A stretch of 57,000 nucleotides of DNA from positions 1 to 57,000 of the forward strand of contig JADYXS010000383.1 in NCBI GenBank assembly GCA_021772155.1, given 5' to 3'. The notes under the pieces are model-generated. The model was not told where the DNA came from, searched no databases, and saw only the letters and a list, made by a program, of their open reading frames with translations. This DNA comes from Candidatus Obscuribacter sp. (GTDB taxonomy: Bacteria > Cyanobacteriota > Vampirovibrionia > Obscuribacterales > Obscuribacteraceae). Shown here piece by piece: positions 7,793 to 10,672 of this stretch. Within the stretch, counting starts at the first letter, position 1. The number at the start of each line of letters is the position of its first letter. Both the position numbers and the translations under genes were made by a program.

Positions 7793-10672
7793 ATGGCAGA
7801 CACAGTCCCGCAATCAGAAAAAGTCCAGCCGGCGGATAGACCGCCAGATCACACTTTGCCGCCGCCTGATTTCAGTACGTGGCAGCTGCAAACTGCCGAC
7901 TATAAAAAAGTGACGGACAGTGAGCGTGGAGTCCAAGGGGCGCCTGGTTCACCGTTGGTGCCACCATTGCAATTGGTCACTGATACGCCAGAGTCATCAT
8001 GGTGGCAGATCGGCAAGGATGCCGCAAATCAACTGACCCGTAGTTCAGTTGAGCAGATCTTGAAACCGGCGGCGCACGCGATTGTCGATCGCTATACAAA
8101 CATAAATGATGCAGACGACGTTCAAAAGGTGCTCGGCGATTTAGTCATAGCTGGAGCTGTTGTCTGGGCGTTCTCTCGTCGAGCGGCGGAAAGACGCGAT
8201 ACCGTGGTGCCGCGCGATAGACCAATTCCGGACCTCTCAGCTCAGGAAAGGGAAAGTTTGCGGGCAACGGCAAACGTCGACATTAATGCACTTCAGCTTG
8301 ATCGCCTGCCTGCCGAGAGCACGGAGCGAGCACAGCAAAGGCTTCGCGGACTTCCGATCAATCCCGCTTATGATCTGGAATTCGAGAAACCTGGACGCTC
8401 AGGCCCATATGCCGATTGGCAGGATTTTGCCCGACGTGGAATTGAATCGCGTTCCGTCGCGGTTAGGCATTACACAGTGGCCGGACATCCTGGCACTTTT
8501 ATAACCGTCGAAGAGGACTATGCTAAGCAACTAGACGAGGTGCGGCAACTTCGAATCGCCGCCGAGAAGCAGGGTGGCACTCGCCAAGAGATAAAGGCAC
8601 AGCAAGAAGCGGAAGCGAAGTTAAAGGAGCATCCACTTCGTGGGGCCTTGTTGCCTGAGGATGTGGTGCAACAACTGGATCAGCTTCCCAATCGTTCTCT
8701 GGTAAAGCATGTAATCATCCAGGGTAGGCCAAACCCTCAAGACGCCTGGCATTCACAAGATTATCAACCCGGCTTTGCCTCCGAGGCCACCGCCGACGGC
8801 AATGGTGTCATTACGTTCTATGGGGCACAAGGTGCGTCCCTTAGCCGCAACATGCGTCATGAATGGGCCCATTTGTTGGAGGGTGGATGCAAGTCTCGTG
8901 CAAGCTTCGATGCGGCAGCTTCCGTCGAGCGTGATGGCTTCTACCAGGGCTCGTATCCCAGGCGCAATGACAGAGAAAACTGGGCAGTCCATTTTGAAGA
9001 ATTGACCGACCATGATGCGGACCGGTTCTTGTTGTTTTGCAAAGAGGCGCCTGTGCGATCGCTTGTGATGGCTATGGGGCTTAGGGAAACGCTCGACGCT
9101 GTTCCTGCTGATCAACGTAGCCCGCACCATAAGCAACTGCTGGAAAGAGTGAAATACGTTGAAGAGCATGTAAAACCGAAGGCTATCGACAAGCTGATAG
9201 AGAACCTCAAGACAAACGGCACCCAGGATGGCGCATCTGGTGGTAAATGTTCGGCGGCGATAAGTTTGCTGCACTATGTTGCAGATATGCGCGCTGTACC
9301 GGCTTTGACTAAGTTTGCCAAAGACCATCCAGGCCACCGTGACGGTCAAAGTGCCTATTTCGCGGCTCGGGAAACGTTGCGCGCCCATGGCACTCACCAA
9401 CAGCGAGTGGAATTCCTCAGAGAAATGAAAGGGTTCACTGACGCAGGAAGCCGAGGGAAAGGCAATACCATCCAAGCACCCGGCGAGATGGCCAATCAGG
9501 ATGCGGCCGCCAGGGCTTCCGTCAATCAACCAGCGAAAAGCGGAGAGTTGCCGCGATCTCCGCGCCCAGCGGAACTGGACAAAGCTGCCGCTTTGTCGGT
9601 TGAGAAAGTCGAGCGCCCTGCATCGCCTGCGGTGGCGTCGGCTCAAGAAAGGACAGAATTATTAGGGAAGCCAGGTCCCGGTATCAGCCCCGAGTCGATT
9701 GCGGCGATACAAAAGATTGTGGCTGAGACGGGCGTGCCGGTAGTCATCTTTGGCAGTCGCCAAACCGGATGGTCTCCGGTGAAGCAACGGCCGTTTACGG
9801 CAGAAAGCGACGTGGACCTTGGGTTGATAGGTGAAGAGCGCGAATTTGACAAACTCACAAATCATCCGGCTTTCGGCGATGGTACCAAGATTGACATACC
9901 GGGTGTAAAGCATTTCCCCATGATGTTCTTCGACTCCGAGGCTGACGCGTTGAATGCCGGCTACTTGATAATACGGCCGAAGTTCGATGCTGCGGCGGTT
10001 TGCAAGTCATTGAATGCTGAGCGCCTGGAGGGTCTAAGAGTCACAGACAGAAGCGGTCATCCCAATAAGCAGGTCGTGATTCAATACCTCAAGAGTCACG
10101 TCGGGGCCGACAGTGGATTGCCGCCTCACCGGCAGGAGGAAGTGGCGCGTTTGCTGGCAGGCTATGAGAAGGGTGATGCAGCTACTGTGCGATCGGTTCA
10201 CGAATTCTTGGGCATCAAGGAAGTAGCCACGAATGCAAATCAGGCTCCGGGCGCGCCAGTCGCTGGAGCTCGCGCTCAGGACCGAGCCGGTGCAGACCGA
10301 CGCGTGGAATTGGCTGACCGCACGCCGAAAACTGCGGACGCTCATGCTAATCGTGAATGGGAGCAAGCTCTGTCAAGCGTCAAGGAGACGCGAGTTATCA
10401 GCCGGGCTCTTGAGCGAGCCAACATGCCGACAGAAAGAGCACAGGCGTTGGAGCGCGATTTGTTGTCCGAGGATCGAGAACGCGTTGCACGCGCCAAGGG
10501 AGAAATACATGAGCGGCTTTCGCCCGGGGAGCGCGATGCTTTCCGGCGGGAATTGCGAGATTGCAGAGGGCGCGAAGCTGCCGCACATGGTGGAAAGCTA
10601 GGGGCAGTGGCGATGGTCTTGAGCGCAGTTCTTCCGCATGTGTTGGGCGAGGAAGAAGACTCAAAAGAATAG
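7793..10672 (+). CDS. multidomain membrane-anchored protein: HExxH zincin-like motif, HEAT-like repeats and a minimal nucleotidyltransferase (Pol-beta/MNT-type) motif
   Basis: 959-aa ORF.
- HEWAH at nt 8858-8872 (aa 356-360), followed by ENWAVHFEE.
- HEAT-like KCSAAISLLHYVADMRAVPALTKFAKDHPGHRDGQSAYFAARETL.
- NTase signature VVIFGSRQTGWSPVKQRPFTAESDVDLGLIG, with GS at nt 9752-9757 and DVD at nt 9809-9817.
- Hydrophobic helices near aa 113-127 (LGDLVIAGAVVWAF) and at the C-terminus (LGAVAMVLSAVLPHVLG).
- No signal peptide. Confidence 0.85.
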   Translation: MADTVPQSEKVQPADRPPDHTLPPPDFSTWQLQTADYKKVTDSERGVQGAPGSPLVPPLQLVTDTPESSWWQIGKDAANQLTRSSVEQILKPAAHAIVDRYTNINDADDVQKVLGDLVIAGAVVWAFSRRAAERRDTVVPRDRPIPDLSAQERESLRATANVDINALQLDRLPAESTERAQQRLRGLPINPAYDLEFEKPGRSGPYADWQDFARRGIESRSVAVRHYTVAGHPGTFITVEEDYAKQLDEVRQLRIAAEKQGGTRQEIKAQQEAEAKLKEHPLRGALLPEDVVQQLDQLPNRSLVKHVIIQGRPNPQDAWHSQDYQPGFASEATADGNGVITFYGAQGASLSRNMRHEWAHLLEGGCKSRASFDAAASVERDGFYQGSYPRRNDRENWAVHFEELTDHDADRFLLFCKEAPVRSLVMAMGLRETLDAVPADQRSPHHKQLLERVKYVEEHVKPKAIDKLIENLKTNGTQDGASGGKCSAAISLLHYVADMRAVPALTKFAKDHPGHRDGQSAYFAARETLRAHGTHQQRVEFLREMKGFTDAGSRGKGNTIQAPGEMANQDAAARASVNQPAKSGELPRSPRPAELDKAAALSVEKVERPASPAVASAQERTELLGKPGPGISPESIAAIQKIVAETGVPVVIFGSRQTGWSPVKQRPFTAESDVDLGLIGEEREFDKLTNHPAFGDGTKIDIPGVKHFPMMFFDSEADALNAGYLIIRPKFDAAAVCKSLNAERLEGLRVTDRSGHPNKQVVIQYLKSHVGADSGLPPHRQEEVARLLAGYEKGDAATVRSVHEFLGIKEVATNANQAPGAPVAGARAQDRAGADRRVELADRTPKTADAHANREWEQALSSVKETRVISRALERANMPTERAQALERDLLSEDRERVARAKGEIHERLSPGERDAFRRELRDCRGREAAAHGGKLGAVAMVLSAVLPHVLGEEEDSKE

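Follow-up and report, generated by a model that had tools for sequence, protein, structure and literature searches.

The window analysed here, a 57-kb stretch of a Candidatus Obscuribacter contig, carries a complete open reading frame (7793..10672, + strand) encoding a protein of 959 amino acids. From N- to C-terminus, this protein consists of a low-complexity region, a zincin domain resembling anthrax lethal factor, a helical extension, a linker, a minimal nucleotidyltransferase (NTase) module of MNT-like type, and a coiled-coil module with a hydrophobic tail. Two full-length orthologues, both metagenome-derived, are 40-42% identical to it. Divergently transcribed from the fusion gene is a giant gene for a product of 2123 aa (1201..7572, - strand), in which only a weak HEAT_2 match is found by Pfam. 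This partnership is conserved: all three fusion genes, that of the window and those of its two orthologues, are divergent to a gene for a protein of ~2100 aa, the giant product being 47-50% identical and the layout the same in loci L001, L002 and L003. The gene downstream of the fusion encodes a PHB-depolymerase-type esterase, and the neighbours include housekeeping genes such as those for Hsp70 and pantothenate kinase.

Neither enzymatic domain reaches a curated threshold, and Pfam, NCBIfam and PADLOC all leave both without annotation. The original prediction of a fusion was built on two short motifs, HExxH and GS..DVD, which on their own are weak evidence: in 20,000 shuffles of the 959-aa protein, HExxH arose by chance in 6.5%, the pattern hG[GS]-x9-18-[DE]h[DE]h in 2.4%, and both together in 0.17%. 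The motifs are taken as real because conservation and predicted folds support them, and on these two grounds the joining of a zincin motif and an NTase motif in one polypeptide is confirmed. HEWAH was correctly placed at 8858-8872 (aa 356-360), as were the residue numbers H356, E357, H360, D673 and D675. GS...DVD likewise lies at 9752-9817, which translates as GSRQTGWSPVKQRPFTAESDVD (G654...D673-V-D675), but the strings quoted with it, IFGSRQTG and SDVDLGL, exceed this interval and are separated by 12 residues, not 11.

The zincin (gluzincin) domain spans aa ~195-475 (~280 aa; 8375..9217, +), as delineated by shared clusters, structural modelling and Foldseek. It is common to 388 clusters at 50% identity (E<=1e-3; 1.84 billion representatives searched). 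Across 22 diverse aligned homologues, H356, E357, H360 and E395 are invariant (22/22); W358, E379 and A398 are near-invariant (A398 in 21/22; E379 likewise in 21/22, with D in the one exception), and Y388 is kept in 17/22. In the AlphaFold model (pLDDT 93.4, pTM 0.90), HEWAH is located inside a long helix (model residues 128-146, ORF aa 347-365), E395 opens a second helix (174-186), and ENWAVH (aa 395-400, nt 8975-8992) is helical. When this model was compared with the PDB using Foldseek, lethal factor accounted for 21 of the 23 top matches (E 1.9e-4 to 1e-2, probability 1.0, TMq 0.43 for the best); structural matches ran from anthrax lethal factor through collagenase M9 and a putative Zn peptidase (4l7a) to M1 aminopeptidases. 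As modelled, the HExxH therefore sits on a long helix of a domain that zincins match best in structure, as originally supposed, and not in a non-zincin helix. The zincin domain of the 959-aa protein has no Pfam or NCBIfam match above threshold. Family members show scattered weak Pfam matches to Peptidase_Mx1, DUF2268, Peptidase_M9 and Aspzincin, all of them zinc-peptidase families, and ATLF is absent from the weak matches of the 22 members. Searched against the PDB, the sequence profile matches the lethal factor core best, at a non-significant E of 0.2.

Lethal factor (MEROPS M34; Pfam ATLF) is the best fold match and shares with the family an HExxH on the active-site helix. In lethal factor, Tyr728 lies seven residues before Glu735 and is presumably the residue that stabilises the transition state. 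The profile alignment sets HEwaH over HEFGH and 'eYakknaeEnwAvhl' over SYGRTNEAEFFAEAF, so that SYPRRNDRENWAVHF of the 959-aa protein pairs with this lethal factor segment in a common Y-x-R-x-N-x-x-E-x-[FW]-A pattern on a later helix, and E395 stands opposite Glu735, one of the zinc ligands of lethal factor (PMC5668564). The downstream acidic ENWAVH, which had been proposed as the region of the Glu ligand, is thus the counterpart of the helix bearing Glu735. By this comparison of sequence and secondary structure, the predicted ligands of a single zinc are H356 and H360 of HEWAH (8858..8872, +) and E395 of Y388-x6-E395-N-W-A-V-H (8954..8992, +); E357 would act as the general base that activates water, and Y388 may stabilise the transition state in the manner of Tyr728. 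E379, 19 aa past H360 (8927..8929, +), could instead serve as the third ligand, or have a structural role. The family differs from lethal factor in that it has no significant sequence match to that protein or to Pfam ATLF, carries a signature of its own (HEW[AS]H ... E ... ENWAVH), and has an H-to-E spacing of 33-44 residues versus 45.

The NTase-like module occupies aa 621-730 (~110 aa; 9653..9982, +). Its motif, GS-X17-DXD (G654-S655-x17-D673-V-D675; 9752..9817, +), is predicted from conservation and the model to bind triphosphate and Mg. In 14 homologues, down to 29% identity, G654, S655, R656, Q657, G659, D673 and D675 are invariant, and GPG, RQ and H-x-P are further invariant features of the clade. 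H707 and D714 (9911..9934, +) are, by conservation, candidates for a third metal ligand or catalytic residue: at least 90% of the 14 members have H at the former position, whereas the latter, at the end of strand 3 (711-713), is acidic in 8/14 and D in all three fusion proteins. The AlphaFold model (pLDDT 92.1) shows the topology helix / strand-GS-short helix / loop / strand(DxD) / helix / strand / helix / strand, with GS right after strand 650-653 (VVIFGS, 650-655) and D675 beginning strand 675-679 (SDVDLGLI, 672-679). The segment is accordingly modelled as beta-strand, GS, short helix, loop and beta-strand from D675, in agreement with the proposed NTase fold. Foldseek support is moderate (E 0.02, TM about 0.5): HI0073 (1no5) comes first (probability 0.97 and 0.91, TMt 0.56, 23-24% identity), then the MNT antitoxins 7ae9_G (0.60), 6m6u_F (0.25), 7bxo_E (0.14) and 5yep_A (0.11), then TUT7 and Cid1. 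The Pol-beta signature hG[GS]..[DE]h[DE]h named in the original prediction is present, with G, S, D and D in 14/14 members and minimal nucleotidyltransferases as the best PDB matches. A PDB search using sequence only returned no NTase match. The Pfam matches fall below threshold and belong exclusively to NTase-fold families (Polbeta in 7/14 members, MdcG in 5/14, NTP_transf_2 in 4/14), the scores reaching at most 15.3 bits versus a gathering threshold of 21 for NTP_transf_2 and at most 15.2 versus 26.9 for Polbeta.

Taken together, these features make it somewhat probable (roughly 55%) that the 959-aa protein is a multidomain enzyme combining a lethal-factor-type gluzincin endopeptidase with a minimal Pol-beta-type nucleotidyltransferase that performs AMPylation-type chemistry on proteins. 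Its most likely function would be that of a two-enzyme protein modifier, and the role of proteolysis plus nucleotidylation implied by the original prediction is one that we reasonably infer rather than report as a result. Both domains would bind metal and be catalytically active. In the transferase, the predicted contacts with the NTP phosphates are made by G654/S655, and those with Mg2+ by D673 and D675 together with D714 and/or H707. The chemistry is most likely the transfer of NMP to a protein hydroxyl, because characterised MNTs put AMP on protein tyrosine. Substrates would be proteins rather than nucleic acids, and possible targets include the producer's own proteins, the giant neighbour among them, or proteins of another cell. 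Neither fold is new and enzymes are often fused in multidomain proteins, so the find is only moderately surprising.

It is unlikely that one or both modules are non-catalytic binding or scaffold relics, or that the substrate of the NTase is a nucleic acid or a small molecule instead of a protein. Such readings would fit the third carboxylate, which is not invariant in the NTase family, and the GSX17DXD spacing kept throughout the clade, which makes the GS-DxD loop 7 residues longer than that of MntA, where the site is GSX10DXD with D71, on strand 3, as third carboxylate (PMC7641770); both features count against the two-enzyme reading. They would also fit the weak likeness to MdcG, whose substrate is a small molecule/ACP, and the RNA uridylyltransferases among the structural matches. 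However, all residues expected for zincin catalysis are invariant, and GS and both Asp are kept in every NTase homologue aligned, which is unusual for a pseudoenzyme.

The closest known relatives of the module, the MNT antitoxins (MntA, HI0073; type VII), share with it a ~100-aa core in which hGS follows strand 1 and strand 2 carries DxD; like them, the module has stand-alone homologues, some of only 112-126 aa. The module differs from them in its extra invariant motifs (GPG, RQ, H-x-P), in scores under the Pfam thresholds, and in being embedded after a protease in a 959-aa protein. It also differs in genetic context. No partner of the HEPN toxin type (RX4HXY) was found next to four stand-alone NTase homologues, and no HEPN family occurs in the 959-aa protein or the 33 Pfam-scanned ORFs of the window, which bears out the earlier remark that no HEPN gene is nearby. 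The accompanying generalisation, that MNT domains normally stand alone and are paired with HEPN, holds for the MntA clade but not for the module at aa 621-730, which belongs to a different, HEPN-less clade. Members of this clade exist as stand-alone proteins of 112-216 aa, as tandem copies, and within unrelated large proteins that lack the zincin. This new GSX17DXD clade suggests that MNT-like, likely protein-nucleotidylating enzymes extend more widely than toxin-antitoxin pairs.

In HEPN-MNT pairs, the MNT antitoxin silences its partner by tyrosine (oligo-)AMPylation (PMC7641770), and fused MNT-HEPN proteins regulated via AMPylation are reported (PMC13000451). The zincin-NTase fusion resembles the latter, and polyvalent or multi-toxin proteins, in joining an MNT-type transferase to a potentially harmful enzyme and in carrying several enzymatic modules per chain. 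It differs from them in that the partner is a zinc protease rather than a HEPN RNase and in showing no sign of toxicity, of a mobile-element context or of immunity genes. A self-regulated protease can be imagined on this model, in which the NTase modifies the zincin (e.g. at Tyr388) in cis or in trans, or the giant neighbour, and so switches proteolysis. We regard it as quite improbable. The precedents of MNT antitoxins and of fused MNT-HEPN proteins speak for it, together with the conserved tyrosine beside the predicted metal site and the persistence of the NTase-zincin union in all three orthologues. Yet the fusion is seen only in the product of 7793..10672 and its two orthologues, 3 of about 390 zincin clusters, so the protease family has no general need of an NTase, and the NTase clade also occurs apart from the zincin. 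Its most specific form would be a built-in safety switch in the style of MNT: the NTase would oligo-AMPylate a tyrosine of the zincin, Tyr388 being the obvious candidate, or of the giant neighbour, and a dangerous protease would stay inactive as long as no trigger takes the modification off. This version, too, seems a long shot; if true, it would mean that the logic of type VII toxin-antitoxin pairs has passed from an RNase to a zinc protease. Under the preferred two-enzyme reading, a single chain with both protease and transferase, encoded next to a conserved partner of 2100 aa, offers a tractable case for examining whether AMPylation is coupled to proteolysis.

The zincin family is found chiefly in Candidatus Obscuribacterales, which are non-photosynthetic relatives of cyanobacteria with a poorly known lifestyle. 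Species-representative genomes yielded 31 zincin loci, 28 of them true homologues: 23 come from genomes titled Obscuribacterales, Obscuribacteraceae, Obscuribacter or Melainabacteria, and the other 5 have less specific titles, plain 'bacterium' in 3 cases and 'Cyanobacteria bacterium' or 'Proteobacteria bacterium' in 2. Genomes carry several paralogues each (at least 5-6 in a single MAG), and the module after the protease varies among them (HEAT, LRR, TPR, annexin+FHA, GGDEF); in one paralogue, annexin, FHA and zincin are combined. Some paralogues reach 5700-5800 aa, one of these with two zincin copies. This unannotated family of lethal-factor-like zinc proteases, with many paralogues and swapped targeting modules, may represent either an effector arsenal or an elaborate proteolytic signalling system.

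The first of these options, tentative but possible, is that the fusion is a delivered effector or toxin, exported or injected into prey, host or competitor, where the protease cleaves and the NTase nucleotidylates targets, the paralogues forming the arsenal. Lethal-factor-like metallopeptidases are a recognised class of toxin domains, termed 'ALF-MPTase' by Zhang et al. (2012), and include PVC-delivered toxins in which annexin precedes the peptidase, as well as multi-toxin proteins of giant size (PMC3482391). The family resembles these in its very large multidomain members, including the two-zincin giant, and in the paralogue whose zincin follows annexin and FHA; the eukaryote-type LRR and HEAT modules and the multiplicity within single genomes point in the same direction. 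On the other hand, neither a signal peptide nor a recognisable trafficking domain is present in the 959-aa protein, whose N-terminus has no Pfam domain. Unlike lethal factor, it has no protective-antigen-binding domain or known delivery route and belongs to an Obscuribacterales-concentrated family; unlike PVC and polymorphic toxins, it shows no N-terminal trafficking domain, and the 57-kb window revealed no signal peptide, secretion system, contractile-injection gene or downstream immunity-like gene. The GGDEF and FHA domains of some paralogues are typical of intracellular signalling, and the surroundings are of a housekeeping kind.

The remaining parts of the chain are a helical extension (aa 476-560) and a low-complexity linker (aa 561-620), together 9218..9652 (+), and a helical/coiled-coil C-terminal module (aa 755-959; 10055..10669, +). 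Homology with some paralogues extends to query aa ~545. The HEAT repeats of the original prediction were not confirmed, Pfam giving no HEAT match in the 959-aa protein. Nor was its transmembrane anchor: by Kyte-Doolittle averages over 19 residues, for which the usual transmembrane cut-off is 1.6, the best segments reach 1.47 (aa 110-128, VQKVLGDLVIAGAVVWAFS; 8120..8176, +) and 1.51 (aa 933-951, within the tail GGKLGAVAMVLSAVLPHVL; nt 10589-10645). The former, a possible membrane segment, is followed by basic residues, as is the hydrophobic stretch at this position in both orthologues; the tail is also kept in the orthologues (1.38-1.59) and might tether the protein to a membrane or a partner. 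In the fusion protein and its orthologues, the variable slot after the protease is filled by the NTase and the C-terminal helical module with its tail. The C-terminal module is kept in both orthologues, and a distinct protein of 754 aa in L002 also ends in such a module (28% identity, E 7.6e-12).

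The original prediction placed a zincin protease and a nucleotidyltransferase (NTase) in one polypeptide, and this core reading is real and supported. Both motifs are carried by a 959-aa ORF (7793..10672, + strand), hereafter the fusion protein, whose translation gives HEWAH at residues 356-360 (nt 8858-8872), ENWAVH at residues 395-400 and GSRQTGWSPVKQRPFTAESDVD, that is G654-S655-x17-D673-V-D675, at nt 9752-9817. The residue numbers first assigned to H356/E357/H360 and D673/D675 are right, and the spacer within the NTase motif, initially written as x11, counts 12 residues. Along the chain, a low-complexity N-terminus with a single weakly hydrophobic segment (residues 1-194) is followed by the zincin domain (195-475), a helical extension (476-560), a Pro/Ala-rich linker (561-620), the NTase-like module (621-730) and a helical C-terminal module with a conserved hydrophobic tail of 16-19 residues at its end (755-959). 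On their own, the two motifs carry little weight: among 20,000 shuffled versions of the protein, 6.5% contained HExxH, 2.4% an NTase-like motif and 0.17% the two together. The whole protein had no match in Pfam, NCBIfam or PADLOC, and PDB sequence searches with it and with three profiles returned nothing significant. An opposite-strand ORF (8753-9646, 297 aa) sits within the conserved coding region and is treated as spurious, and a promoter and terminator scan of 7400-11000 found nothing exceeding shuffled expectation.

A word-indexed search with the whole fusion protein found six relatives, namely two full-length orthologues (40-42% identity) and four partial ones that share only residues ~200-470; with the zincin profile, this type of search gave at least three. 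When 1.84 billion representatives were searched exhaustively with HMMER, 388 clusters matched at E<=1e-3, of which 64 reached E<=1e-30; query residues ~195-475 were the matched region in almost all of the 388, and the host proteins had lengths of 230 to 5800 aa. In an alignment of 22 diverse members (27-62% identical), H356, E357, H360 and E395 are invariant, W358, E379, A398, P420, R422 and R452 are nearly invariant, and Y388 is present in 17. The AlphaFold2 model of residues 220-464 built from this alignment (pLDDT 93.4, pTM 0.90) is very confident and has HExxH within a long helix and E395 where a later helix begins. When this model was compared with the PDB using Foldseek, 21 of the 23 top matches were anthrax lethal factor (best E 1.9e-4, probability 1.0, TMq about 0.4); further matches were collagenase M9 peptidase domains, a putative zinc peptidase of Bacteroides (4l7a) and M1 gluzincins. 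The lethal factor core (2l0r) was also the top PDB sequence match of a catalytic-core profile, at an E of 0.2 that is not significant alone and serves only to corroborate the fold match. This alignment pairs HEWAH with HEFGH of lethal factor and SYPRRNDRENWAVHF with SYGRTNEAEFFAEAF, so that E395 falls opposite Glu735 and Y388 is matched to a lethal factor tyrosine, taken to be Tyr728, that precedes Glu735 by seven residues. In lethal factor, zinc is bound by His686, His690 and Glu735, with Glu687 acting as general base (PMC5668564). Conserved residues, predicted fold and the pairing of E395 with Glu735 thus support the proposed zincin with a Glu third ligand, and the sequence and model comparisons also support narrowing its predicted type to lethal-factor-like. 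Pfam scans of the fusion protein and family members did not place them in ATLF at the sequence level, and a literature search for Obscuribacter and metalloprotease found no papers.

The NTase identity of the GS..DVD region is likewise supported, by its invariant GS/DxD residues, its model and its Foldseek matches to HI0073 and MNT proteins. The region around residues 610-740 is common to the two orthologues, an 804-aa protein with two tandem copies and a 2841-aa protein, and a profile search adds ten small NTase-like proteins (112-216 aa), one of them with a signal peptide. Across 14 sequences of the module, G654, S655, R656, Q657, G659, D673, D675 and A719 are invariant, and the GPG turn, G677, G680 and H707 are nearly so. 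The confident model of residues 621-748 (pLDDT 92.1) runs in the order helix, strand (VVIF), GS, short helix, 13-residue loop, strand from D675, helix, strand (MFF), helix, strand. Foldseek ranks HI0073 first (probability 0.97 and 0.91, E 0.02, TMt 0.56, 23-24% identity), the partner that binds the nucleotide in the HI0073/HI0074 pair, followed at lower probability by the MNT antitoxins 7ae9_G (0.60), 6m6u_F (0.25), 7bxo_E (0.14) and 5yep_A (0.11) and then by RNA uridylyltransferases. NTase-fold families are also the sole recurring weak Pfam matches of the 14 members, all of them sub-threshold (Polbeta 7/14, MdcG 5/14, NTP_transf_2 4/14). The antitoxin MntA has GSX10DXD, a third carboxylate at D71 and an adjacent HEPN toxin, HepT (PMC7641770), whereas the module of the fusion protein has GSX17DXD and D714, the latter in the three fusion proteins and at a position acidic in only 8/14 family members. 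A HEPN partner was sought and rejected, since none is present in the fusion protein, in the 33 scanned ORFs of the window, as had been noticed at the outset, or beside four stand-alone homologues. By motif and predicted fold, the module is therefore MNT-like, yet it stands outside the HEPN-MNT system. One stand-alone homologue, P0159 (locus L007, 6001-6486), has a clear N-terminal signal peptide, and genes for a trypsin-like protease, a sulfatase and a beta-lactamase-family protein seem to share an operon with it; part of this clade at least may thus work outside the cytoplasm.

Among the zincin paralogues, the protease is followed by HEAT_2, LRR, annexin and FHA, GGDEF or PolyA_pol modules, so the position after the protease is a variable slot, taken by the NTase in the orthologous group of the fusion protein. 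The fusion of zincin and NTase is limited to this one small group. Paralogues P0012, P0018, P0013, P0016, P0027 and P0008 join the zincin to other modules, with two GGDEF domains, a PolyA_pol head domain, annexin with FHA and long LRR arrays in the set, and one paralogue of 5828 aa has a second zincin copy. For the taxonomic scan, a degenerate DNA pattern for HEW[AS]H...ENWA was run over species-representative genomes and matched 31 loci, 28 of which were upheld by tblastn; the three that it did not confirm (Acidobacteriota, Bacteroidetes and Burkholderiales titles) are treated as chance matches. The titles of 23 of the 28 read Obscuribacterales, Obscuribacteraceae, Obscuribacter or Melainabacteria, and the other five are titled only "Cyanobacteria bacterium" or "Proteobacteria bacterium" (two) or only "bacterium" (three). 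By this distribution, Obscuribacterales is the most probable source order of the window. Furthermore, the family is multiplied in single Obscuribacterales MAGs (loci L008-L038, GTDB genomes): isolate SW_5 contributes at least six contigs and SRP287453_co1_156 at least five, and tandem copies occur at L015, L021, L025, L032, L034 and L035.

A giant gene (1201-7572, - strand, 2123 aa in the window) is divergently transcribed from the fusion gene and kept in this arrangement at all three orthologous loci (L001, L002 and L003). Its products, of 2073-2123 aa, are 47-50% identical between loci, have no domain match beyond weak HEAT_2 and are likely functional partners or substrates of the fusion protein. 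The giant neighbour in the window was considered as a relative of the N-terminal regions of the zincin family but shows no similarity to them, and no second copy of the giant gene, the zincin or the NTase was found elsewhere in the window. At orthologous locus L002, a separate 754-aa protein (1203-3467, - strand), whose gene adjoins the giant one, ends in the same helical module as the last ~200 aa of the fusion protein (10055-10669, + strand; 28% identity, E 7.6e-12), and this shared sequence seems to serve in docking or anchoring. Downstream of its giant ORF, the window lacks an equivalent of the 754-aa gene. The tail in which the module ends, GGKLGAVAMVLSAVLPHVL, could be a tail anchor. The original description of the protein as TM-anchored is unproven, because its two hydrophobic segments have mean Kyte-Doolittle values of 1.47 and 1.51, below the criterion of 1.6, and 138 of 151 zincin family members have no segment at 1.6 before the domain. 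The HEAT repeats also ascribed to it are not detected by Pfam.

What would such a protein do? Every residue expected of a gluzincin and of a GS/DxD nucleotidyltransferase is retained in its two independently conserved modules, for which matching folds are confidently predicted, and we give a probability of roughly 55% to a bifunctional protein-modifying enzyme. The zincin would hold one zinc via H356, H360 and E395 and cut peptide bonds with E357 as the base. The NTase would hold Mg-NTP via G654, S655, D673 and D675, plus D714 or H707, and may put NMP on a protein hydroxyl, because MntA and MNT, its only characterised close structural relatives, AMPylate a tyrosine of their partner protein (PMC7641770). 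That the NTase instead gates the protease by AMPylating it seems improbable, and would be analogous to the fused MNT-HEPN proteins (PMC13000451). Where would the bifunctional enzyme act? An exported effector is one candidate, in view of the known use of lethal-factor-like peptidases as toxins (PMC3482391), an annexin-peptidase paralogue, giant multi-copy proteins and the expanded paralogue set. An endogenous role is another, in view of the absence of any export signal or machinery, the GGDEF and FHA fusions in paralogues and the conserved giant neighbour; it could be regulatory proteolysis, possibly of the giant neighbour. The 57-kb window is otherwise ordinary chromosome (Hsp70, pantothenate kinase, peptidases, esterases) with no secretion or injection apparatus.

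The closest known families are lethal factor and related ALF-type toxin metallopeptidases for the zincin and MNT minimal nucleotidyltransferases for the NTase module, each alike in predicted fold and catalytic motifs, but the fusion protein scores below the curated sequence thresholds of both. Unlike them, it has signatures of its own (HEW[AS]H...E...ENWAVH and GPG...GSRQ[TS]G-x12-[ST]DxD...H, respectively) and lacks their defining partners, protective-antigen delivery and HEPN. The main value of these results lies in a large unannotated Obscuribacterales protease family and a HEPN-less MNT-like clade rather than in a new principle.

Other genes of the window deserve mention. Directly downstream of the fusion gene, and not conserved beside its orthologues, lies a PHB-depolymerase-type esterase (10797-12020, + strand; NCBIfam e_dPHAscl_type1, 149.2 bits, just short of the cut-off of 150), which starts with an extension of ~130 aa that is unusually rich in Gly. 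A 420-aa protein (23064-24326, + strand) consists of nine WG-containing beta repeats (Pfam WG_beta_rep, E 2.7e-100). In addition, two adjacent, slightly overlapping ORFs (38730-39983 and 39910-41241, both + strand) each have a calpain-type cysteine protease domain (Peptidase_C2), a type uncommon in bacteria, and the second also has TPR.
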